A stretch of 64,000 nt of DNA, from positions 10,540,001 to 10,604,000 of the forward strand of contig NC_135830.1 of NCBI RefSeq assembly GCF_964213995.1, read 5' to 3'. Each line of letters opens with the position of its first letter. Position 1 is the stretch's first letter. The position numbers and the translations under genes were made by a program. This DNA comes from Mustelus asterias. Its lineage: Eukaryota. Under the pieces are notes generated by a model, which worked only from the letters and a program-made list of their open reading frames with translations, made no database searches and had not been told where the DNA came from. This document shows positions 26,651 through 51,679 of this stretch, piece by piece.

Positions 26651-29600
26651 AAGAACATAAGAACATAAGAAATAGGAGCAGGAGTAGGCCATCTAGCCCC
26701 TCGAGCCTGCCCCGCCATTCAATAAGATCATGGCTGATCTGACGTGGATCAGTACCACTTACCCGCCTGATCCCCATAACCCTTAATTCCCTTACCGATC
26801 AGGAATCCATCCATCCGCGCTTTAAACATATTCAGCGAGGTAGCCTCCACCACCTCAGTGGGCAGAGAATTCCAGAGATTCACCACCCTCTGGGAGAAGA
26901 AGTTCCTCCTCAACTCTGTCTTAAATCGACCCCCCTTTATTTTGAGGCTGTGTCCTCTAGTTTTAACTTCCTTACTAAGTGGAAAGAATCTCTCCGCCTC
27001 CACCCTATCCAGCCCCCGCATTATCTTATAAGTCTCCATAAGATCCCCCCTCATCCTTCTAAACTCCAACGAGTACAAACCCAATCTCCTCAGCCTCTCC
27101 TCATAATCCAAACCCCTCATCTCCGGTATCAACCTGGTGAACCTTCTCTGCACTCCCTCCAATGCCAATATATCCTTCCTCATATAAGGGGACCAATACT
27201 GCACACAGTATTCCAGCTGCGGCCTCACCAATGCCCTGTACAGGTGCATCAAGACATCCCTGCTTTTATATTCTATCCCCTTCGCAATATAGGCCAACGT
27301 CCCATTTGCCTTCTTGATCACCTGTTGTACCTGCAGACTGGGCTTTTGCGTCTCATGCACAAGGACCCCCAGGTCCCTTTGCACGGTAGCATGTTTTAAT
27401 TTGTTTCCATTGAGATAGTAATCCCATTTGTTATTATTTCCTCCAAAGTGTATAACCTCGCATTTCTCAACGTTATACTCCATTTGCCATATCCTCGCCC
27501 ACTCACTCAGCCTGTCCAAATCTCTCTGCAGATCTTCTCCGTCCTCCACACGATTCACTTTTCCACTTATCTTTGTGTCGTCTGCAAACTTCGTTACCCT
27601 ACACTCCGTCCCCTCCTCCAGATCATCTATATAAATGGTAAACAGTTGCGGCCCGAGTACCGATCCCTGCGGCACGCCACTAGTTACCTTCCTCCAACCG
27701 GAAAAACACCCATTTATTCCGACTCTTTGCTTCCTGTCGGATAGCCAGTCCCCAATCCACTTTAACACACTACCCCCAACTCCGTGTGCCCTAATCTTCT
27801 TCAGCAGCCTTTTATGGGGCACCTTATCAAACGCCTTTTGGAAATCCAAAAACACCGCATCCACCGGTTCTCCTCCATCAACCGCCCTAGTCACATCTTC
27901 ATAAAAATCCAACATGTTCGTCAAGCACGACTTTCCCCTCATGAATCCATGCTGCGTCTGATTGATCGAACCATTTCTATCCAGATGCCCTGCTATCTCC
28001 TCTTTAATAATGGATTCCAGCATTTTCCCTACTACAGACGTTAAGCTGACCGGCCTATAGTTACCCGCCTTTTGTCTCCTTCCTTTTTTAAACAGCGGCG
28101 TAACATTAGCCGCTTTCCAATCAACCGGCACTACCCCAGAATGCAACGAGTTTTGATAAATAATCACTAACGCATCCACTATTACCTCTGACATTTCTTT
28201 CAATACCCTGGGATGCATTCCATCCGGACCCGGGGACTTGTCCACCTTCAGTCCCATTAGTCTACCCAGCACTGCCTCTCTGGTAACATTAATCGTATTA
28301 AGTATTTCTCCTGCTGCCAACCCTCTATCGTTAATATTTGACAAACTATTTGTGTCCTCCACCGTGAAGACCGACACAAAAAACGTATTTAAAGACTCAG
28401 CCATATCCTCATTTCCCACTATTAACTCCCCCCTCTCGTCCTCCAAGGGTCCAACATTCACTCTAGCCACTCTATTCCTTTTTATATATTTATAAAAACT
28501 TTTACTATCATTTTTTATATTAATTGCTAGCCTAGCTTCATAGTCTATCCTTCCTTTCTTTATCGCTTTCTTAGTCTCTCTTTGTTGTTTCTTAAATTTT
28601 TCCCAATCACTTGTTTCTCCACTATTTTTGGCCACTCTGTACGCAGCTGTTTTTATTTTAATACTCTCCTTTATTTCCTTCGTTATCCACGGCTGGTTCT
28701 CCCTTTTCTTACAATCCTTGTTTTTTGCTGGAATATATTTTTGCTGAGAACTGAAAAGGATCTCCTTAAAAATCCTCCACTGTTCCTCAGCTATCCTACC
28801 TGCCAGCCTGCTCTCCCAGTCTACCTTAGCCAATTCATCCCTCATCCTATCATATTTCCCTCTGTTCAAACAGAGGACACTGGTTTGAGACCAAACTTTC
28901 TCCTCTTCCATCTGAATCAGAAATTCGACCATATTGTGGTCACTAGACCCAAGAGGGTCCTTCACAATAAGATCCTTAATTCTACCTACCTCGTTACACA
29001 ATACCAGATCCAAAATAGCTCGTTCCCTTGTCGGTTCCGTAACATGCTGTTCAAGGAAACTATCCCGACAGCATTCTAAGAACTCTTCCTCCATTCCACC
29101 CTTACTGACTTGAGTCTGCCAGTCAATGTGCATGTTGAAGTCCCCCATGATTATTGCCGTTCCGTTTTTACACGCATCCCTTATCTGCTTGTTTATAGCC
29201 CTCCCTACCTCAACATTATTATTTGGGGGCCTATATACCACACCTACTAGTGTCTTTCTCCCTCTACTATTCCTCATCTCTACCCATAATGATTCCACGT
29301 TTTGTTCCTCAGAGCCTATGTCATCCCTCAGTACTACCCTGATATTATCTCTTATTAATAGCGCGACCCCACCACCTTTTCCTTCCTGTCTATTCTTCCT
29401 AAACGCCTGATACCCCTGGATATTCATCTCCCAGTCCTGGTCACCTTTCAGCCATGTTTCTGTAATGGCCACTAGATCGTACCCACTTGTGCTGATTTGC
29501 ACCATCAACTCATTCACCTTGTTCCGAATGCTTCGTGCATTCAGGCAAAGTGTCCTTATTCCAGCTTTTATCTGGACCCGCTTTGATGAGTCGCGAACAC

Positions 29601-30165
29601 CCTCTCCCTCTACTCCCTTATCTAAATTACCGCCTTCATTCACTTGCACCCTCTCCTCTACCATTAATTTTGTAATTCCCCTTACCCCTGCATCCTCCCC
29701 CCCATCAATTAGTTCCTTGATCCTAGTCAACTCTTCTAGCTCCCCTCCCCCCAACCTATCTAGTTTAAATTCTCCCCAGTAGCCTTAGCCAACCTACCGG
29801 CCAGGATATTGGTCCCCGTGTGATTCAAGTTCCACCCGTTTTTTGTATACAGATCACCCCTGCCGCTAAAGAGGTCCCAATGGTCCAGGAACCTGAATCC
29901 CTGCCCCCTGCACCACTCCCTCAGCCACACATTCATCCTCCACCTCACTCCATTCCTGCCCTCACCTTCCCGTGGCACAGGCAGTAATCCTGAGATTACT
30001 ACCTTTGCTTTCCTCTTTCTCAGCTGTCTCCCTAATTCCCTGTACTCCCTTTTCATGACCCCTTCTCCCTTCCTACCCACATCAGCGGTACCAATATGTA
30101 CCGCTACCTCAGGCTTCTCTCCCTCCCACCTCAGGATTTCCGGGACCCGACTAGCGACATCCTGG
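26651..30165 (-). mobile_element. CR1 family B element: ORF1 3' half and intact ORF2
   Basis: (TTCTTATG)n tail at 26651; 5'-truncated within the ORF1 esterase (HIGTAD); CTGG microhomology at the 5' junction. Confidence 0.95.
26749..29769 (-). CDS. CR1 ORF2 (APE endonuclease + reverse transcriptase), uninterrupted, ~1000 aa
   Basis: LNARS, ITETW, GGGVA, YRPP, GDFN, SDH endonuclease motifs; [27 protein letters not shown] motifs; no stops. Confidence 0.93.
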   Translation of the reverse strand, partial: FKLDRLGGGELEELTRIKELIDGGEDAGVRGITKLMVEERVQVNEGGNLDKGVEGEGVRDSSKRVQIKAGIRTLCLNARSIRNKVNELMVQISTSGYDLVAITETWLKGDQDWEMNIQGYQAFRKNRQEGKGGGVALLIRDNIRVVLRDDIGSEEQNVESLWVEMRNSRGRKTLVGVVYRPPNNNVEVGRAINKQIRDACKNGTAIIMGDFNMHIDWQTQVSKGGMEEEFLECCRDSFLEQHVTEPTRERAILDLVLCNEVGRIKDLIVKDPLGSSDHNMVEFLIQMEEEKVWSQTSVLCLNRGKYDRMRDELAKVDWESRLAGRIAEEQWRIFKEILFSSQQKYIPAKNKDCKKRENQPWITKEIKESIKIKTAAYRVAKNSGETSDWEKFKKQQRETKKAIKKGRIDYEARLAINIKNDSKSFYKYIKRNRVARVNVGPLEDERGELIVGNEDMAESLNTFFVSVFTVEDTNSLSNINDRGLAAGEILNTINVTREAVLGRLMGLKVDKSPGPDGMHPRVLKEMSEVIVDALVIIYQNSLHSGVVPVDWKAANVTPLFKKGRRQKAGNYRPVSLTSVVGKMLESIIKEEIAGHLDRNGSINQTQHGFMRGKSCLTNMLDFYEDVTRAVDGGEPVDAVFLDFQKAFDKVPHKRLLKKIRAHGVGGSVLKWIGDWLSDRKQRVGINGCFSGWRKVTSGVPQGSVLGPQLFTIYIDDLEEGTECRVTKFADDTKISGKVNRVEDGEDLQRDLDRLSEWARIWQMEYNVEKCEVIHFGGNNNKWDYYLNGNKLKHATVQRDLGVLVHETQKPSLQVQQVIKKANGTLAYIAKGIEYKSRDVLMHLYRALVRPQLEYCVQYWSPYMRKDILALEGVQRRFTRLIPEMRGLDYEERLRRLGLYSLEFRRMRGDLMETYKIMRGLDRVEAERFFPLSKEVKTRGHSLKIKGGRFKTELRRNFFSQRVVNLWNSLPTEVVEATSLNMFKARMDGFLIGKGIKGYGDQAGKWY

Positions 30166-31496
30166 TAGCTTGTTCCAGACACTCACCACCCTCTGTGTGA
30201 AAAAATTGCCCCACTGGACACTTTTGTATCTCTCCCCTTAAACCTATGCCCTCTAGTTTTAGACTCCCCTACCTTTGGGAAAATATATTGACTATCTACC
30301 TTGTCTATGCCCCTCATTATTTTATAGACTTCTATAAGGTCACCCCTCAGCCTCCTACGCTCCAGAGAAAAAAGTCCCAGTCTATTCAGCCTCTCCTTAT
30401 AACTCAATCCATCAAGTCCCGGTAGCATCCGAGTAAATCTTTTCTGCACTCTTTCTAGTTTAATAATATCGTTTCTATAATAGGGTGACCAGAATTGCAC
30501 ACAGTATTCCAAGTGTGGCCTTAGCAATGTCTTGTACAACTTCAAAAAGACGTCCCAACTCCTGTATTCAATGTTCTGACCGATGAAACCAAACGTGCCG
30601 AATGCCTTCTTCACCACTCTGTCCATCTGTGACTCAACTTTCAAGGAGCTATGAACATGTACCCCTCGATCTCTTTGTTCTGTAACTCCCCAATGCCCTA
30701 CCATTAACTGAGTAAGTCCTGCCCTGGTTCAATCTACCAAAATGCATCACCTCGCATTTGTCTAAATTAAACTCCATCTGCCATTCGTCAGCCCACTGGC
30801 CCAATTGATCAAGATCCCGCTGCAATTGGAGATAACCTTCCTCACTGTCCACCATGCCAGCAATCTTGGTGTCATCTGCAAACTTACTAACCATGCCCCC
30901 TATATTCTCATCCAAATCATTAATATAAATGACAAATAACAGTGGGCCCAGCACTGATCCCTGAGGCACACCGCTGGTCACAGGCCTCCAGTTTGAAAAA
31001 CAACTCTCTCCAACTAACAGAAGCCAATTTTGTATCCATTTAGATACCTCAACCTGGATCCTGTGAGATTTAACTTTATGCAACAACCTACCATGCGGTA
31101 CCTTGTCAAAGGCCTTGCTAAAGTCCATGTAGACAACATCAACTGCACTGCCCTCATCTACCTTCTTGGTTACCCCTTCAAAAAACTCAATTAAATTTGT
31201 GAAACATGATTTTCCACTCACAAAGGCATGCTGACTGTCCCTAATCAGTCCTTGCATCTCTAAATGCCTGTAGATCCTGTCTCTCAAAATACCTTCCAAT
31301 AATTTACCCACCATAGATGTGAGGCTAACTGGCCTGTAGTTCCCAGGCTTTTCCCTGCAGCCCTTTTTAAACAAAGGCGCAACATTTGCCACCCTCCAAT
31401 CTTCAGGCACTTCACCTGTGACTATCGATCATTCAAATATTTTGGCTGGGGGACCCGCAATTTCCTCCCTAGCCTCCCACAACATCCTGGAATATA

Positions 31497-34400
31497 GAAC
31501 ATAGAACATAGAACAGTACAGCACAGAACAGGCCCTTCGGCCCACGACGTTGTGCCGAGCTTTATCTGAAACCAAGATCAAGCTATCCCACTCCCTATCA
31601 TCCTGGTGTGCTCCATGTGCCTATCCAATAACCGCTTAAATGTTCCTAAAGTGTCTGACTCCACTATCACTGCAGGCAGTCCATTCCACACCCCAACCAC
31701 TCTCTGCGTAAAGAACCTACCTCTGATATCCGTCCTGTATCTCCCACCACGAACCCTATAGTTATGCCCCCTTGTAATAGCTCCATCCACCCGAGGAAAT
31801 AGTCTTTGAACGTTCACTCTATCTATCCCCTTCATCATTTTATACACCTCTATTAAGTCTCCCCTCAGCCTCCTCCGCTCCAGAGAGAACAGCCCTAGCT
31901 CCCTCAACCTTTCCTCATATGACCTACCCTCCAAACCAGGCAGCATCCTGGTAAATCTCCTCTGAACTCTTTCCAGCGCTTCCACATCCTTCTTATAGTG
32001 AGGTGACCAGAACTGCACACAATATTCCAAATGTGGTCTCACCAAAGTCCTGTACAGTTGCAGCATAACCCCACGGCTCTTAAACTCCAACCCCCTGTTA
32101 ATAAAAGCTAACACACTATAGGCCTTCTTCACAGCTCTATCCACTTGAGTGGCAACCTTTAGAGATCTGTGGATATGGACCCCAAGATCTCTCTGTTCCT
32201 CCACAGTCTTCAGAACCCTACTTTTGACCCTGTAATCCACATTTAAATTAGTCCTACCAAAATGAATCACCTCACATTTATCAGGGTTAAACTCCATTTG
32301 CCATTTTTCAGCCCAGCTTTGCATCCTATCTATGTCTCTTTGCAGCCTACAACAGCCCTCCACCTCATCCACTACTCCACCAATCTTGGTGTCATCAGCA
32401 AATTTACTGATCCACCCTTCAGCCCCCTCCTCTAAGTCATTAATAAAAATCACAAAGAGCAGAGGACCAAGCACTGATCCCTGCGGCACACCGCTAGCAA
32501 CCTGCCTCCAATCCGAAAATTTTCCATCGACCACCACCCTCTGTCTTCGGTCAGACAGCCAGTTACCTATCCAATCGGCCAACTTTCCCTCTATCCCACA
32601 CCTCCTCACTTTCATCATAAGCCGACCATGGGGGACCTTATCAAACGCCTTACTAAAATCCATGTATATGACATCAACTGCCCTACCTTCATCAACACAC
32701 TTAGTTACCTCCTCAAAAAATTCTATCAAATTTGTGAGGCACGACTTGCCCTTCACGAATCCGTGCTGACTATCTCGGATTAATCCGCATCTTTCTAAAT
32801 GGTCGTAAATCCCATCCCTAAGGACCCTTTCCATCAATTTACCAACCACCGAAGTAAGACTAACCGGCCTATAATTACCAGGGTCATTTCTATTCCCTTT
32901 CTTAAACAGAGGAACAACATTCGCCATTCTCCAGTCCTCTGGCACCATCCCCGTGGACAGCGAGGACCCAAAGATCAACGCCAAAGGCTCTGCAATCTCA
33001 TCCCTTGCCTCCCACAGAATACTAGGATACATTTAATCAGGCACAGGGGACTTATCGACCTTCAGTTTATTCAAAACTGCCAAGACATCCTCCCTCCGAA
33101 CATCTATTTCCTCCAGCCTATTAGCCTGTAACACCTTCTCTTCCTCAAAAACATGGCCCCTCTCCTTGGTGAACACTGAAGAAAAGTATTCATTCATCAC
33201 CTCGCCTATCTCTACTGCCTCCATACACAAGTTCCCACTACTGTCCTTGACCGGCCCTAACCTCACCCTGGTCATTCTTTTATTCCTCACATAAGAGTAA
33301 AAAGCCTTGGGGTTTTCCTTGATCCGACCCGCCAAGGACTTCTCATGTCCCCTCCTAGCTCTCCAAAGCCCCTTTTTCAGCTCATTCCTTGCTAACTTGT
33401 AACCCTCAATCGAGCCATCTGAACCTTGTTTCCTCATCCCTACATAAGCTTCCCTCTTCCTTTTCACAAGACATTCCACCTCTTTCGTGAACCATGGTTC
33501 CCTCACTCGGCCATTTCCTCCCTGCCTGACAGGAACATACCTATCAAGGACATCCAGTATTTGTTCCTTGAAAAAGTTCCACTTTTCATTAGTTCCTTTC
33601 TCTGACAGTTTCTGTTCCCAACTTATGCTCCCTAATTCTTGCCTAATCGCATCATAATTACCCCTCCCCCAATTGTAAACCTTGCCCTGCCGTACGGCCC
33701 TATCCCTCTCCATTGCAATAACAAAAGACACCGAATTGTGGTCACTATCTCCAAATTGCTCTTCCACAACCAAATCTAACACTTGGCCCGGTTCATTTCC
33801 CAGTACCAAATCCAATGTGGCCTCACCTCCAGTCGGCCCATCCACATATTGTGTCAGGAAACCCTCCCGCACACACTGCACAAAAACTGCCCCATCCAAA
33901 CTATTTGACCTACAAAGGTTCCAATCAATATTTGGAAAGTTAAAGTCCCCCATGACAACTACCCTGTGACCCCCACACATATCCATAATCTGCTTAGCAA
34001 TTTCTTCCTCCACATCTCTATTACTATTTGGGGGCCTATAGTAAACTCCTAGCAACGTGACCACTCCTTTCCTATTTCTAACTTCAGCCCATATTACCTC
34101 AGTGTGCAGATCCCCCACGAAGTGCCTTTCCGCAGCCGTTAAACAATCCTTGATTAACAATGCCACTCCTCCACCTCTTTTACCAGCTTCCCTACACTTA
34201 GTGAAACATCTATACCCCGGAACGTCCAACAACCATTCCTGTCCTTGTTCTACCCACGTCTCCGTAATGGCCACAACATCGTAGTCCCAAGTACCAATCC
34301 ACGCCCCAAGTTCATCTACCTTGTTCCGGATGCTCCTTGCATTGAAGTAGACACACTTCAACCCACCTTCCTGTCTACCAGTACCCACCCTTGACCCTGA

Positions 34401-35531
34401 TACCTTCCCCAATACCTCACCACCCTCACTGACTTCTGGACTACAACTCCCTTTCCCACTCCCCTGACAAATTAGTTTAAACCCCCCTGAAGAGCCGTAA
34501 CAAATTTCCCTCCGAGGATATTGGTGCCCCTCTGGTTCAGGTGCACCCCGTCCTGTTTGTACAGGTCCCACCTTCCCCAGAACGTGTTCCAATTATCCAC
34601 GTATCTGAAACCCTCCCTCCTACACCATCCCTGCAACCACATATTTAACTGCACTCTCTCCCTGTTCCTCAACTCGCTATCACGTGGTACCGGCAACGTA
34701 CCAGAGATGACCACATGTTTCGTCTTGGCTCTCAGCTTCCAGCCCAGCTCCAGAAATTCCTGCTTTAAATCCCCGTCCCTTCTCTTACCTATGTCATTGG
34801 TACCAATGTGCACCACGACTTGTGACTGTTTCCCCTCCCCCTTCAGAATCTGGAAAACACGGTCTGAGACATCACGGACCTTGGCATCCGGTAGGCAACA
34901 TACCATCCGTGAGTCTCTTTTGCTGCCACAGAACCTCCTATCTATCCCTCTAACTAACGAGTCCCCAATAACTATCGCCCTCCCGCTCTCCCCCTTTCCC
35001 TCCCGAGCCACAGAGACGGACACAGTGCTGGAGATCCTCTCACTGCGGCTCCCCACTGGTATGTCATCCCCCTCAACCGTATCCAAAGCGGAATACTTGT
35101 TGCTAAGGGGAACGACCACCGGGGATCCCTGCACGGACTGCTTCCTCCCAGCCCCTCTCACCGTCACCCATCTGCTTTCAATCCTCGGAGTAACTGTATT
35201 CCTAAAGCTTGTGTCTATGGCCATCTCTGCGTCCCTGATGATCCTAAGTTCATCCAACTCCAGCTCCAGTTCCCTAACACGGTTTTGGAGGAGCTGCAGA
35301 TGGGTGCACTTCCCACAGGTGTAATCAGCAGGGACACTGTCGTCGTCCCTCACCTCAAACATAGTGCAAGAGGAACATTGCACTGCCTGCACACCCATCC
35401 CCTCTAGATACCTTGCCAGTACCAGGTAGAAAGTGCAAAAATGAATTCAACTCACCCCTGCTCGCCCTTTCAGCCTAAAACCTGTGAGCCAAAGTCTTAT
35501 AGCTCACACTCTGCTTCCCACACACTCCACT
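31497..35531 (-). mobile_element. Near full-length CR1 family C element (intact ORF1; ORF2 with one nonsense codon at 33033-33035)
   Basis: (TTCTATG)n tail; TSD GAATATA at 31490-31496 and 35532-35538; ORF2 pieces 33033-34592 and 31578-33032 are in the same frame. Confidence 0.95.
34472..35398 (-). CDS. CR1 ORF1: zinc finger/leucine zipper + SGNH esterase domain, 308 aa
   Basis: CSSC..CGKC, heptad LQNRVRELELELDEL, IVIGDSL, HIGTND, DGVHL. Confidence 0.92.
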   Translation of the reverse strand: MGVQAVQCSSCTMFEVRDDDSVPADYTCGKCTHLQLLQNRVRELELELDELRIIRDAEMAIDTSFRNTVTPRIESRWVTVRGAGRKQSVQGSPVVVPLSNKYSALDTVEGDDIPVGSRSERISSTVSVSVAREGKGESGRAIVIGDSLVRGIDRRFCGSKRDSRMVCCLPDAKVRDVSDRVFQILKGEGKQSQVVVHIGTNDIGKRRDGDLKQEFLELGWKLRAKTKHVVISGTLPVPRDSELRNRERVQLNMWLQGWCRREGFRYVDNWNTFWGRWDLYKQDGVHLNQRGTNILGGKFVTALQGGLN

Positions 35532-44351: not shown

Positions 44352-45139
44352 TTCCAGGAGTTGGATTCTGCTGTTATTGTTTCTGCTCTCAATTACATCC
44401 AGGACTGCATTTTGTTCATTCTCACAGTTGGTCACTGGGGAGAATTGGAGGCTCTCTTTCTGCTGGACTGGCCGGTCTCACCACTTTGCCTCCAGTGGGC
44501 TGATAATCTTTTAACCTTGTTTTGAATATCTGGCTTTGGATTTCTCAAGGATCACAGAGTGAAAGGGTGTTTGGAAGTTCAAAGATATTTTGTTCACAAT
44601 ACTATTTGGAAGGCGCACAAAGCATGCAGAGGGAGTAGTGAGCCTGCGGAACTGAAAGAGATTAGTATTAGTGAAAAAGTAGCACTGGGAAAATGAATGG
44701 GGTTGGAAGTGAATAAATCCCCAAAAAGCTGCTGATCTACATCCCAGAGTGTTGGAAGAGGTGGCTGTGGAGATAGTGGATACATTGGTGGTCATCTTTC
44801 CAAATTCTATAGATTCCACAGGACCAGGCTGAGGAGAAGGCAGTTGGTGTGTTCACTACATTTATTTATTTATTTTAAGTTAAATTTGTGTAAAAAAATC
44901 GGAGGTTTTTTTTAAAACAGGAAGTGGGCCCAGCAGGAGTCTGGGAAGGTTTTTGGAGGGTTTAAAAGTAGGCCGCACTTTTGAGCGGGCAGCGTCGTTA
45001 GCGGGCAGCAGAGTGAGCAGGAGGCAGAGTGAATGCTGTAGGGCTTTGGCTCACAGGGCTTAGGCAGAAAGGGCGAGCAGGGGTGAGTTAATTCATTTTT
45101 TGCTGTTTCTACCTGGTACTGGCAAGGTATCTAGAGGGG

Positions 45140-46066
45140 ATGGGTGTGAAGGCAGTGCAATGTTCCTCTTGCACTATGTTCGAGGTGAGGGACGACGTCA
45201 GTGTCCCTGTTGATTATACCTGTGAGAAGTGCATCCATCTGCAGCTCCTCCAAAACCGTGTAAGGGAACTGGAGCTGGAGTTGGAGGAACTTAGGATCAT
45301 TAGGGATGCAGAGATGGCCATAGACAGAAGCTTCAGGGATACAGTTACTCCGAGGAATGAAAATAGATGGGTGACGGTGAGAGGGGCTGGGAAGAAGCAG
45401 TCGGTGCAGGGATCCCCTGTGGTCGTTCCCCTTAGCAAGAAGTATTCCGCTTTGGATACGGTTGAGGGGGACGACATACCAGTGGTGAGCCGCAGTGAGA
45501 GGATCTCCGGCACTGAGTCCGTCCCTGTGGCTCAGGAGGGTAAGGAGGAGAGCGGGAGGGCAATAGTTATTGGGGACTCATTAGTTAGAGGGATAGATAG
45601 GAGGTTCTGTGGCAGCAAAAGAGACTCGAGGATGGTTTGTTGCCTAGCGGATGGCAGGGTCCGTGACGTCTCGGACCGTGTTTTCCGGATTCTTAAGGGG
45701 GAGGGGAAACAGTCACAAGTCGTGGTACACATTGGTACCAACGACATAGGTAAGAGAAGGGACGGGGATTTAAAACAGGAATTTCGGGAGCTGGGCTGGA
45801 AGCTGAGAGCAAAGACAAAACATGTGGTCATCTCTGGTACGCTACCGGTGCCACGTGATAGCGAGTTGAGGAACAGGGAGAGAGTGCAGTTAAACATGTG
45901 GTTGCAGGGATGGTGCAGGAGGGAGGGTTTCAGATACGTGGATAATTGGAACACGTTCTGGGGAAGGTGGGACCTCTACAAACAGGACGGGGTGCACCTG
46001 AGCCAGAGGGGCACCAATATCCTGGGAGGGAAATTTGCTACGGCTCTTCAGGGGGATTTAAACTAA
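45140..46066 (+). CDS. CR1 ORF1: zinc finger/leucine zipper + SGNH esterase, 308 aa
   Basis: CSSC..CEKC, IVIGDSL, HIGTND, DGVHL. Confidence 0.92.
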   Translation: MGVKAVQCSSCTMFEVRDDVSVPVDYTCEKCIHLQLLQNRVRELELELEELRIIRDAEMAIDRSFRDTVTPRNENRWVTVRGAGKKQSVQGSPVVVPLSKKYSALDTVEGDDIPVVSRSERISGTESVPVAQEGKEESGRAIVIGDSLVRGIDRRFCGSKRDSRMVCCLADGRVRDVSDRVFRILKGEGKQSQVVVHIGTNDIGKRRDGDLKQEFRELGWKLRAKTKHVVISGTLPVPRDSELRNRERVQLNMWLQGWCRREGFRYVDNWNTFWGRWDLYKQDGVHLSQRGTNILGGKFATALQGDLN

Positions 46067-48760
46067 TTTGTCAGGGGAGTGGGAAAAGGAGTTGTAGTCC
46101 GGAAGTCAGTGTTGAGGGTGGTGAGATATTGGGGAAGGTATCAAGGTCAAGGGTGGGTACCGGTAGACAGGAAGATGGGTTGAAGTGTGTCTACTTCAAT
46201 GCAAGGAGCATCCAGAACAAGGTGGATGAACTTGGGGCGTGGATTGCTACTTGGGACTACGATGTTGTGGCCATTACGGAGACATGGGTAGAACAAGGAC
46301 AGGAATGGTTGTTGGACGTTCCGGGGTATAGATGTTTCAGTAAGTGTAGGGAAGCTGGTAAAAGAGGTGGAGGAGTAGCATTGTTAATCAAGGATAGTTT
46401 AACGGCTGCGGAAAAGCACTTTGAGGGGGATATGCACACTGAGGTAATATGGGCTGCAGTTAGAAACAGGAAAGGAGCGGTCACGTTGCTAGGAGTTTAC
46501 TATAGGCCCCCAAATAGTAATAGAGATGTGGAGGAAGAAATTGCAAAGCAGATTATGGATGCGTGTGGGGGTCACAGGGTAGTTGTCATGGGGGACTTTA
46601 ACTTTCCAAATATTGATTGGAACCTTTGTAGGTCAAATAGTTTGGATGGGGCACTTTTTGTGCAGTGTGTGCAGGAGGGTTTCCTGACACAATATGTGGA
46701 TAGGCCGACAAGGGGTGAGGCCACATTGGATTTGGTACTGGGAAATGAACCGGGCCAAGTGTTAGATTTGGTTGTGGGAGAGAACTTTGGAGATAGTGAC
46801 CACAATTCGGTGTCTTTTGTTATTGCAATGGAGAGGGATAGGGCCGGACGGCAGGGCAAGGCTTACAATTGGGGGAGAGGTAATTATGATGCGATTAGGC
46901 AAGAATTAGGGGGCATAAGATGGGAACAGAAACTGTCAGGGAAAGGCACTGATGAAAAGTGGAACTTTTTCAAGGAACAAATACTGGGTGTCCTTGATAG
47001 GTATGTCCCTGTCAGGCAGGGAGGAAATGGCCAAGTGAGGGAACCGTGGTTCACAAAAGAGGTGGAATGTCTTGTGAAAAGGAAGAGGGAAGCTTATGTA
47101 GGGATGAGGAAACAAGGTTCAGATGGCTCGATTGAGGGTTACAAGTTAGCAAGGAATGAGCTGAAAAAGGGGCTGAGGAGAGCTAGGAGGGGACATGAGA
47201 AGTCCTTGGCGGGTCGGATCAAGCAAAACCCCAAGGCTTTTTACTCTTATGTGAGGAATAAAAGAATGACCAGGGTGAGGTTAGGGCCGGTCAAGGACAG
47301 TGGTGGGAACTTGTGTATGGAATCAGTAGAGATAGGCGAGGTGATGAATGAATACTTTTCTTCAGTGTTCACCAAGGAGAGGGGCCATGTTTTTCAGGAA
47401 GAGAAGGTGTTACAGGCTAATAGGCTGGAGGAAATAGATGTTCGGAGGGAGGATGTATTGGCAGTTTTGAATAAACTGAAGGTCGATAAGTCCCCTGGGC
47501 CTGATGAAATGTATCCTAGGATTCTTTGGGAGGCGAGGGATGAGATTGCAGAGCCTTTGGCTTTGATCTTTGGGTCCTCGCTGTCCACGGGGATGGTGCC
47601 AGAGGACTGGAGAGTGGCAAATGTTGTTCCTCTGTTTAAGAAAGGGAATAGAAATGACCCTGGTAATTATAGACCGGTTAGTCTGACTTCGGTGGTTGGT
47701 AAATTGATGGAAAAGGTCCTTAGGGATGGGATTTACGACCATTTAGAAAGATGCAGATTAATTCGGGATAGTCAGCACGGATTTGTGAAGGGCAAATCGT
47801 GCCTCACAAATTTGATAGAATTTTTTGAGGAGGTAACTAGGTGTGTTGATGAAGGTAGGGCAGTTGATGTCATATACATGGATTTTAGTAAGGCGTTTGA
47901 TAAGGTCCCCCATGGTCGGCTTATGATGAAAGTAAGGAGGTGTGGGATAGAGGGAAAGTTGGCCGATTGGATAGGTAACTGGCTATCTGATCGAAGACAG
48001 AGGGTGGTGGTGGATGGAAAATTTTCGGACTGGAGGCAGGTTGCTAGCGGAGTGCCGCAGGGATCGGTGCTTGGTCCTCTGCTCTTTGTGATTTTTATTA
48101 ATGACTAAGAGGAGGGGGCTGAAGGGTGGATCAGTAAATTTGCTGATGACACCAAGATTGGTGGAGTAGTGGATGAGTTGGAGGGCTGTTGTAGGCTGCA
48201 AAGAGACATAGCTAGGATGCAAAGCTGGGCTGAAAAATGGCAAATGGAGTTTAACCCTGATAAATGTGAGGTGATTCATTTTGGTAGGACTAATTTAAAT
48301 GTGGATTACAGGGTCAAAGGTAGGGTTCTGAAGACTGTGGAGGAACAGAGAGATCTTGGGGTCCATATCCACAGATCTCTAAAGGTTGCCACTCAAGTGG
48401 ATAGAGCTGTGAAGAAGGCCTATAGTGTGTTAGCTTTTATTAACAGGGGGTTGGAGTTTAAGAGCCGTGGGGTTATGCTGCAACTGTACAGGACCTTGGT
48501 GAGACCGCATTTGGAATATTGCGTGCAGTTCTGGTCACCTCACTATAAGAAGGATGTGGAAGCGCTGGAAAGAGTGCAGAGGAGATTTACCAGGATGCTG
48601 CCTGGTTTGGAGTGTCGGTCTTATGAGGAAAGGTTGAGGGAGCTGGGGCTGTTCTCTCTGGAGCGGAGGAGATTGAGGGGTGACTTAATAGAGGTTTATA
48701 AAATGATGAAGGGGATAGATCGAGTGAACGTTCAAAGACTATTTCCTCGGGTGGATGGAG

Positions 48761-49938
48761 GCCAAAAGGCCTTTGACAAGGTGCCTCACGGGAGACTGCT
48801 GAGTAAAATAAGGGCCCATGGTATTCGAGGCAAGGTACTAACATGGATTGACGATTGGTTGTCAGACAGAAGGCAGAGAGTTGGGATAAAAGGTTCTTTC
48901 TCAGAATGGCAACCGGTGACAAGTGGTGTCCCGCAGGGTTCAGTGTTGGGGCCACAGCTGTTCTCTTTATATATTAACGATCTAGATGACGGGACTGGGA
49001 GCATTCTGGCCAAGTTTGCCGATGATACAAAGATAGGTGGAGGGGCAGGTAGTATTGAGGAGGTGGGGAGGCTGCAGAAAGATTTAGACAGTTTAGGAGA
49101 GTGGTCCAAGAAGTGGCTGATGAAATTCAACGTGGGCAAGTGCGAGGTCGTACACTTTGGAAAAAAGAATAGAGGCATGGACTATTTTCTAAACGGTGAC
49201 AAAATTCATAATGCTAAAGTGCAAAGGGACTTGGGAGTCCTAGTCCAGGATTCTCTAAAGGTAAACTTGCAGGTTGAGTCCGTAATTAAGAAAGCAAATG
49301 TAATGTTGTCATTTATCTCAAGAGGCTTGGAATACAAAAGCAGGGATGTACTTCTGAGGCTTTATAAAGCACTGGTTAGGCCCCATTTGGAGTACTGTGA
49401 GCAATTTTGGGCCCCACACCTCAGGAAGGACATACTGGCACTGGAGCGGGTCCAGCGGAGATTCACACGGATGATCCCAGGAATGGTAGGCCTGACATAC
49501 GATGAACGTCTGAGGATCGTGGGATTATATTCATTGGAGTTTAGGAGGTTGAGGGGAGATCTGATAGAAACTTACAAGATAATGAACGGCTTAGATAGGA
49601 TGGACGTAGGGAAGTTGTTTCCATTAACAGGGGAGACTAGGACGCGGGGGCACAGCCTTAGAATAAAAGGGAGTCACTTTAGAACAGAGATGAGGAGAAA
49701 TTTCTTCAGCCAGAGAGTGGTGGGTCTGTGGAATTCATTGCCACAGAGGGCTGTGGAGGCCGAGACGTTGAGCGTCTTCAAGACAGAAATTGATAAATTC
49801 TTGATTTCTCGAGGAATTAAGGGCTATGGGGAGAGAGCGGGTAAATGGAGTTGAAATCAACCATGATTGAATGGTGGAGTGGACTCGATGGGCCGAATGG
49901 CCTTACTTCCGCTCCTATGTCTTATGGTCTTATGGTCT
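48761..49938 (+). mobile_element. 5'-truncated CR1 family D nested in family C
   Basis: Host sequence GATGGAG|(C)TATTACAAG is split; (CTTATGGT)n tail; open RT fragment. Confidence 0.92.
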
Positions 49939-51679
49939 TATTACAAGGGGGCATAACTATAGGGTTCATGGTGGGAGATATAGGAAGGATATCAGAGGTA
50001 GGTTCTTCACGCAGAGAGTGGTTGGGGTGTGGAATGGACTGCCTGCAGTGATAGTGGAGTCAGACACTTTAGGAACATTTAAGCGGTTATTGGATAGGCA
50101 CATGGAGCACACCAGGATGGTAGGGAGTGGGATAGCTTGATCTTGGTTTCAGATGAAGGTCGGCACAACATCGTGGGCCGAAGGGCCTGTTCTGTGCTGT
50201 AATGTTCTATGTTCTATGGAATGGTTGCTGCAGATTGGAAGGTGGTAAATGTAACCCCACTGTTTAAGGAGGGAGAGAGAAAACGGGGAACCACAGACCC
50301 ATCAGCCTGACATCAGCCGGAGGGAAAATGCTACAATCTATTGTACAGGATGTGATAACAGATGAATATGCATATTCAGAACAGGGGTACGTCCCTCACA
50401 CCTGCTCCACCATTCAATACATACACAGCTGATCTGATTGTAACCTCAACTTCACATTCCCGTTGACCCCCCCAATGAGCTTCAGACTAAAACTCCCTCC
50501 TCTGTGTAACATCTGGGAGGAAATCAATGTTTCCCCCTTTCCATTTCTTTTCTCATTCTGGGGGAAATTGGGGCCTTGCAGCAACTGAAGGGAAAGGAAG
50601 TGAATCCAGGGAGGCTGCAGACTCTGGAAAGGTTTGCCCCAGGTCTCTCTCGACTCTGGAAAGGTTGGCCCAGGTCTCCTTCTCTACCTCTTAAAGACAC
50701 TGACATAATTTCCTCTCTCAACTTGACACATTTATTTGTCTGGCTAAAAGGATGGTCTCTTTTCGAATGTTCACGGGCTGGTTTCCCCAGGAGATAGAAA
50801 CCTGCTCGACCATCCATTATGATCATGGCCGATCATCAAATTCAATATTCTGATCCCTCCCGCCCTCCCAATATCCTTTCAGCGCCGAGAACTCTATCTA
50901 ATTTCTTCTTGAAATCACACAATGTCTTGGCTTCAGCTACTTTCTGTGGGAGTGAATTCCACACATTCACCATTCTCTGGGTGAAGAAATTTCTCACTTC
51001 AGTCCTGAAAGGTTGACCCCTTATCCTCAACTCCCCCACCGTCAGGAACATCGAGAGATGGCTGACATTTAAGGGGGACAGTAAATATAGGACAGACATC
51101 TGTCTAATGTTGTTACATGGTACATAATTGGTTCTGTAACAAAATACATTTATTATTTCTAGTTTTGTAATATAGTACTTTAGCGACATTATATATTTCC
51201 ATTATACATTCACAGCACAGGTGTCCATTCAGTAACTCGAGTCCATGCCGACTTTCTGTCGGACAATACAGTCAGTCCCACTACCCCTCTATAGCCCTGT
51301 TCCCCTGCAAGTTTATTTCCTTCAGATGCCCAACCCAATTTATTTTAAATTATTCTTCTCCACTTCCACCACTGGTGTGATTTTCTGATTATACCCACTC
51401 GCTGTCTAAATAAAGTTCTTCCTCACACACCCCCTACTCTATCTCAAATTAAAAGATACAGCACTCTCGATCAAACATTTTCTGGACAGTTAATTGTGCA
51501 TCTGAAGAGATATATGTACATTTACTGAATTAAAATGTTTGGGTGTCTGACTCCAGGACCTTGTATCGATAGATCAACATGACTCACTGATTCAGCAGAA
51601 TTGAGAGGGTGAATATTAGACACATCAGAGTGCGAATGGAGTGTGTGGGACGGAGATTTACAGCTTTTGGGATCTTTTT

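Follow-up and report, generated by a model that had tools for sequence, protein, structure and literature searches.

The production of the ORF2 protein from bicistronic LINE RNAs has been described either as unclear or as a matter of reinitiation (PMC3708506, PMC2881922), and termination-reinitiation is the described route for both SART1 and L1 (PMC2881922, PMC3708506, PMC10275272; these and the papers below are cited for the accessible portions of their texts). For the LINEs of Paramecium, +1 shifting or reinitiation has been suggested (PMC5405496). Among the heptamers that cause mammalian ribosomes to slip, U_UUA_AAC and G_GGA_AAC rank with the most shift-prone, and the only non-LTR elements that the accessible part of the same source names for frameshifting are HeT-A and TART, with none named for CR1 (PMC5009743). 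The CR1 elements are the commonest repeats in chicken (PMC11835228), and an esterase is present in the ORF1 of their tetrapod versions (10.1101/788562). A programmed CR1 frameshift finds no mention in the accessible portions of 10.1101/788562, PMC11835228, PMC4255032 or the paper on the zebrafish element ZfL2-1 (PMC3905857), the last having no mention of frameshifting at all in that portion. Our literature search likewise recovered no report of a -1 frameshift in CR1; the CR1 papers of the 1990s and the Repbase notes may already suggest one.

The window analyzed here is a 64,000-nt stretch of the Mustelus asterias genome (GCF_964213995.1, contig NC_135830.1, positions 10,540,001-10,604,000, forward strand), which harbors several copies of such elements (Table 1). 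Copy A displays the features of a CR1-type LINE, namely an ORF1 with an SGNH esterase, an ORF2 combining an APE endonuclease with a reverse transcriptase (RT), and a 3' end of short tandem repeats (TTCTATG, 50206-50218) without poly(A). Elements of this type are abundant in the genome, with 45,589 candidates in 3.68 Gb in a first search. Comparison of their sequences makes it quite probable that ORF2 synthesis depends on a programmed -1 ribosomal frameshift at U_UUA_AAC, the product of which would be a minor fusion of the ORF1 esterase with the endonuclease and RT beside abundant ORF1 protein.

Table 1. CR1-type elements of the window and the parts of the ORF1-ORF2 junction of copy A (positions counted from the first base of the window)
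Feature	Position	Strand	Support or remark
Copy A, near full-length CR1-type LINE, dead	44814-50218	+	98.4% (44814-48760) and 98.9% (49939-50218) identity to sister L253
ORF1 of copy A, 308 aa, N-terminal CxxC...CxxC and C-terminal SGNH esterase, ending Leu-Asn-stop	45140-46066	+	PF13472; E 7e-27 to the ZfL2-1 ORF1 esterase 4c1b
Slippery heptamer TTTAAAC, phased T TTA AAC in ORF1	46057-46063	+	NNT TTA AAC in 14/14 in-register lineages
ORF1 stop TAA, directly 3' of the heptamer	46064-46066	+	TAA/TAG in 13/14 lineage representatives
ORF2 of copy A, -1 frame: 45-codon linker, APE endonuclease, RT, until premature TAA	46057-48108	+	PF03372, PF14529, PF00078
Candidate stimulator: G-tract GGGG-AGT-GGG at a distance of 10 nt from the heptamer	46074-46083	+	GGG codon conservation
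Nested 5'-truncated CR1 of another family, 1178 bp, splitting ORF2 of copy A	48761-49938	+	Gap in the L253 match; own 3' repeat at about 49917-49939
Copy B, sister copy of the same family as A	31500-35527	-	Heptamer 34481-34475, stop 34474-34472; ORF2 interrupted by a stop codon
Copy C, distant CR1 family	26749-30272	-	44% ORF1 identity to A; heptamer 29769-29763, TAG 29762-29760

ORF1 of copy A begins with the AUG at 45140 and closes with the codons GAT TTA AAC TAA, so that the heptamer has the X XXY YYZ phase in the ORF1 frame and the -1 frame is ORF2, just as the original prediction had read it; the endonuclease and RT domains are indeed found in that frame. The -1 frame opens at 45946 and runs F-K-L-I-C-Q-G through the heptamer into the linker, with the endonuclease motifs FNARS and ITETW at codons 46 and 72. 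Its first AUG past the heptamer comes only at codon 125 (46432), 79 codons beyond FNARS and within the endonuclease, and this position is a Leu codon in copy B, as claimed before, and carries a C in contigs of four other organisms. A representative of the family of copy A has no ATG in any frame within roughly the 60 nt preceding and the 80 nt following the stop, and no UAAUG overlap of stop and start is conserved, in line with the earlier reading. Elsewhere in two intact ORF2s and the ORF1 of copy A, 12 of 2262 codons coincide with an in-phase canonical heptamer and none with TTTAAAC, and hence its presence at the junction is more than chance. One detail of the original prediction needs correction: the transframe peptide, given there as GDLN/FK-LICQG, would read D-L-N-L-I-C-Q (or D-L-K-L) across the junction, and not F-K. 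ORF1 contains one further in-phase heptamer, T TTA AAA, at 45769-45775; a slip there would be unproductive because the -1 frame does not open until 45946.

Copy A itself is dead. Its ORF2 meets a premature TAA at 48106-48108, where the intact sister L253 has a Leu codon, and is further split by the nested CR1 insertion at 48761-49938, making a full ORF2 impossible. The idea that these LINEs make a Gag-Pol-like fusion protein is favored by the comparison across lineages but fails for copy A, whose frameshift signal is an inheritance from active source elements. In L253, the ORF2 frame is open for 968 aa from the heptamer. Copy C, from a distant family, ends its ORF1 with AAT TTA AAC TAG and has an uninterrupted ORF2 of 1006 codons counted from the heptamer, its -1 frame having a stop 5 codons upstream; the 5' half of its ORF1 is absent or interrupted near 30272. 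A target-site duplication is not obvious around the nested insertion, and the window is crowded with nested CR1 pieces as against only three ORF1 ends in 600 kb sampled elsewhere.

For a wider comparison, we assembled 149 junction loci, 139 of them distinct, from five protein queries, 600 kb of query-free stretches and the window. The heptamer is in register in 137 of the 149, lies within 5 nt in 141 and is accompanied by the stop in 132, counts which are biased in that four of the five genome queries returning loci themselves end in Leu-Asn. The fifth, P0128, does not have this ending, and 27 of its 32 loci show the exact heptamer, the other five differing by one substitution each. The query-free stretches gave three junctions, two with the heptamer and one with a one-base deletion, and a genome search with P0123 gave no locus at its threshold. 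Grouping produced 18 clusters, from which L096 (with an interrupted ORF1), L212 (from the family already represented by L175) and L034 and L037 (one-base deletions) were set aside, leaving 14 lineages that share 57-88% nucleotide identity in ORF1 and have linkers of near-random identity. The codons NNT TTA AAC are invariant in all 14: the first specifies D, T, G, R, A or N but always has T in the third position (background 22%), the Leu codon is always TTA (12% of Leu codons in the background) and the Asn codon always AAC (45% of Asn codons). Of the 21 further degenerate residues that are conserved within the 84 codons ahead of this site, just one is written with the same codon throughout the 14 lineages; these lineages are related, with the result that the counts are not independent, and the 21 control residues have the same history. 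The free synonymous variation that would have spoken against a slippery site is therefore absent. Within families, the heptamer mismatches at 0.9% versus 2.5% for the flanks, a comparison affected by the query bias and CpG decay and for that reason given no weight here. The third-position G at window position 46054, 3 nt upstream of the heptamer, is likewise seen in 14/14 lineages (background 40%), raising the possibility of an upstream context effect.

In 111 of the 149 junctions, it is the -1 frame that contains the endonuclease motif; frame 0 contains it in 14 and +1 in 7, and it was not found in 17, the copies carrying indels. In 11 of the 14 lineages, the -1 frame is closed shortly upstream of the heptamer, one codon off in two of them and five codons off in nine. 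Since the ORF1 stop follows directly behind, a translating ribosome in these 11 lineages can change frame only at the heptamer. The junctions L090-L119 have a G-run of 6 to 9 G after the stop, of which seven G keeps ORF2 in the -1 frame; this suggests reverse-transcriptase slippage disabling copies. The near-identical copies L178, L179, L186 and L189 lie on small contigs and have in common a lost ORF1 stop, which suggests segmental amplification after insertion.

The alternative that survives best, though we regard it as unlikely, is that ORF2 arises by termination-reinitiation after the ORF1 stop in the manner of L1 and SART1, using a linker AUG in those lineages that offer one and a non-AUG codon in the rest. 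L1 ORF2 translation is reportedly independent of an AUG. Of the 10 lineages with an intact copy, five do have an AUG in the ORF2 linker (which is 45-78 codons long), but these AUGs occupy the unrelated codons 3, 25, 35, 38 and 48, with no position common to the lineages. The other five lack any AUG before the endonuclease, as seen in 35/37, 11/11, 11/11, 9/9 and 1/1 of their copies. The hallmark of SART1 and L1, a UAAUG overlap or an AUG near the ORF1 stop, is found in just 1 of the 14 representatives, L160, which has an in-frame AUG beside the stop. Moreover, reinitiation leaves unexplained the invariant NNT-TTA-AAC, the strict -1 frame and the G_GGA_AAC of a distant relative (see below).

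It is improbable that the seven bases are fixed for some other reason, be it a protein-level constraint on Leu-Asn or F-K-L or a DNA or RNA element such as an internal promoter, with ORF2 starting downstream. Leu-Asn is kept at the protein level across vertebrates, and TTTAAA is TATA-like. However, ZfL2-1-like esterases do without the Leu-Asn ending, and the terminal Asn is anchored to the stop rather than to the fold. Dual coding would allow both AAC and AAT, yet AAC occurs in 14/14 lineages and the -1 frame has a stop a short way upstream. A promoter, for its part, would not need the codon phase and would still require an AUG. Marginally less probable again is splicing into CAG|G at 46071-46074, fusing ORF2 to the first ORF1 codons via an in-phase GAG|GTGAGG donor near 45184. 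The family of copy A has this donor, and 8 of the 14 lineages have the CAG, in phase 0 of ORF2. Against this, the CAG is absent in the remaining 6, the preceding 15 nt hold only 7-9 pyrimidines, and of 7 readable copies 3 have the donor GT, which two copies with the CAG lack. Contigs of four runs from other organisms (RNA status guessed, low power) contain no GT..AG joint, one 1757-nt contig is unspliced across 45040-46700, and splicing does not account for the heptamer. The least probable alternative is slippage of the RNA polymerase, whereby a base is inserted to fuse the frames in part of the transcripts: the same fusion would be expected, and the ORF P0354 is such a fusion at the DNA level, but the runs are only three bases long, what is kept is an X XXY YYZ in codon phase, the pattern typical of ribosomal slippage, and contigs of four other organisms (RNA status guessed) have no insertion at the site.

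Programmed -1 frameshifting is thus the reading supported by the codon invariance in 14 lineages, by a different slippery heptamer in a distant relative, and by the lack of a conserved AUG, stop-start overlap or splice route to ORF2. The junction combines an X XXY YYZ heptamer in the 0-frame phase with a -1 ORF devoid of its own conserved start and with nucleotide conservation beyond coding need. The points that count against it include the lack of a 3' structure (see below), the linker AUGs of five lineages, a distant element without the heptamer (L056) and two esterase clades (6 and 9 rows) without the ending.

Relatives outside this genome extend the pattern; here, the DNA-level evidence consists of two loci and the contigs of four related organisms, the rest being read from protein ends. 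Leu-Asn terminates 36 of 65 close ORF1 homologs, most of the others being cut short. Among the best 150 of 5796 profile hits, 79 new proteins reach the last catalytic motif, and these end in Leu-Asn in 41 cases and in Gln-Gly-Asn in 8, the endings lying 25-39 aa from the DGxH motif. Leu-Asn-stop is found in ORF1 relatives from rays, eel, sturgeon, turtles and lizards, the named relatives being from snake, turtles, anole, tegu, monitor, eel, sturgeon and a frog record. A residue that could not be coded as NNT precedes Leu-Asn in only 1 of 42 and 1 of 34 proteins, as against 6.1 and 5.7 expected. A tree of 81 ORF1 columns unites the Mustelus element with reptile, eel and sturgeon proteins in a vertebrate clade (support 98/96) where 24 of 27 database proteins have Leu-Asn, apart from the ZfL2-1-like clade. 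The ending recurs in 12 of 13 members of a second clade, whereas 8 of 16 proteins of a third clade end in Gln-Gly-Asn, and the ZfL2-1-like clade (0/6) and another esterase clade (0/9) lack Leu-Asn. The DNA of a Gly-Asn type metagenome locus, L055, reads CAG GGA AAC TAC TAG, thereby providing a G_GGA_AAC heptamer, though from a single locus with an extra codon before the stop and a contig end 8 nt later. This locus and the 14 lineages support the central claim of the original prediction that a programmed -1 frameshift joins ORF1 and ORF2 of CR1, insofar as comparison can.

A gene model from ibis has F-K-L-D-L-K-G upstream of the endonuclease, and the ORF P0354 reads ORF1 straight into ORF2 as Y-L-K-L-V-G-Q-G-G. 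The distant esterase LINE L056 (403-1500) has no heptamer, and its ORF2 occupies the +1 frame without an AUG ahead of the endonuclease; its junction is of a different or decayed type. Of 35 loci from the metagenome scan, five were read and two of these proved to be LINEs. Viral contigs gave 4 weak matches (E 4e-5 to 2e-4) and prokaryote contigs none. The frog-labeled ORF1 P0099 nests among squamate proteins, and the LINE proteins P0010 and P0376 carry a bacterial label, each pointing to contamination or transfer.

The stimulator would be less conventional. A classical hairpin or pseudoknot 5-9 nt downstream is not seen, and a first stem for a pseudoknot is lacking. None of 28 folds gave a downstream hairpin above shuffles (z -0.85 to +1.55), the alignment fold is empty, and Rfam gave no match at gathering score (best E 0.58), agreeing with the original observation of no clear pseudoknot. 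What is conserved is the G-tract, which starts after a 10-nt spacer as first described, with codons 6 and 8 of the -1 frame each being GGG in 11 of 14 lineages, versus 29% of ORF2 Gly codons. G-quadruplexes can stimulate -1 shifting, those tested doing so best if they have four G3 tracts and a spacing of 6-8 nt (PMC3919603). Of the 14 lineages, 1 has four G3 tracts and 7 have four G2 tracts, the family of copy A having neither; hence, the proposed G-quadruplex stimulator, although in keeping with the conserved G-tract, fits at most half of the lineages and is only partly supported. The G4Hunter score of the region falls at percentile 71-98 within the element. A search, run without a control, for long-range partners of the G-tract gave no single best site common to the lineages. 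In the same uncontrolled search, weak C-rich partners recur in several lineages (L243-L256 and the window) at distances of some 640 and 430 nt on the 5' side of the heptamer, at positions that are probably Pro codons of ORF1. Because no hairpin or pseudoknot was found, we favor the adjacent ORF1 stop together with an unstructured G-tract 10 nt downstream, protein-bound or weakly folded, as the most likely source of the pause.

We accordingly envisage that ribosomes would translate ORF1 and mostly terminate at UAA or UAG, while some would pause at its end, held by the stop and a G-tract that is bound by a protein or weakly folded. There, tRNA-Leu and tRNA-Asn may slip one base back on U_UUA_AAC, allowing a minority of ribosomes to go on through L-I-C-Q-G into the linker, endonuclease and RT, with a predicted product of roughly 1270 aa (308 plus 968 codons, less the overlap). 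If so, the ratio of ORF1 to ORF2 would be built into a fused protein, the ORF2 starts of current annotation would be wrong, CR1 retrotransposition assays would gain a design rule, and the recoding field would have a natural structure-free -1 site. A broader proposal, which we offer tentatively and lean somewhat against, is that CR1-type LINEs from sharks to birds, along with distant animal relatives, all make their RT as a Gag-Pol-like fusion via an ancient -1 frameshift whose stimulator is the adjacent stop plus a G-rich tract 10 nt downstream read by a protein instead of an RNA fold, which would make it a new class of frameshift signal in retrotransposons that are among the most widespread of vertebrates.

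Among known systems, ZfL2-1 (4c1b; PMC3905857) has a homologous SGNH esterase ORF1 (E 7e-27), but unlike the Mustelus element its clade does not have the Leu-Asn ending. SART1 and mammalian L1 resemble the present elements in having a bicistronic RNA with ORF2 dependent on ORF1 translation (PMC2881922, PMC3708506). They reinitiate at a UAAUG overlap or at an AUG after a spacer and make separate proteins, whereas the CR1-type junction has no such conserved start. With the U_UUA_AAC of the coronavirus IBV and with gag-pol sites it shares the heptamer, its phase and the -1 overlap, and a structural ORF is likewise fused to an RT-bearing one (PMC5009743). It differs from the viral sites in lacking a hairpin or pseudoknot 5-9 nt downstream, in the stop directly behind the heptamer and in belonging to a non-LTR element. 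A stop directly after the slippery heptamer is found in RSV and BYDV. Judged by its sequence, the CR1 junction would act like a viral -1 frameshift site, yet it fails the classical 3'-structure test. The nsp2 frameshift of PRRSV is stimulated by protein binding and not by an RNA fold (PMC5009743), a likeness to the role proposed for the G-tract that is one of analogy only. PRRSV uses a C-rich motif and a viral transactivator, in contrast to the G-rich tract without a known binder at the CR1 junction. The PRRSV motif is placed about 10 nt downstream of its slippery site. Finally, although TRE5-A and TRE3-A of Dictyostelium represent a different clade with a different ORF1 and an amoebal host, these APE-type non-LTR elements are comparable to the CR1-type elements in that a -1 frameshift is stated to be needed for their ORF2 (PMC5911963).
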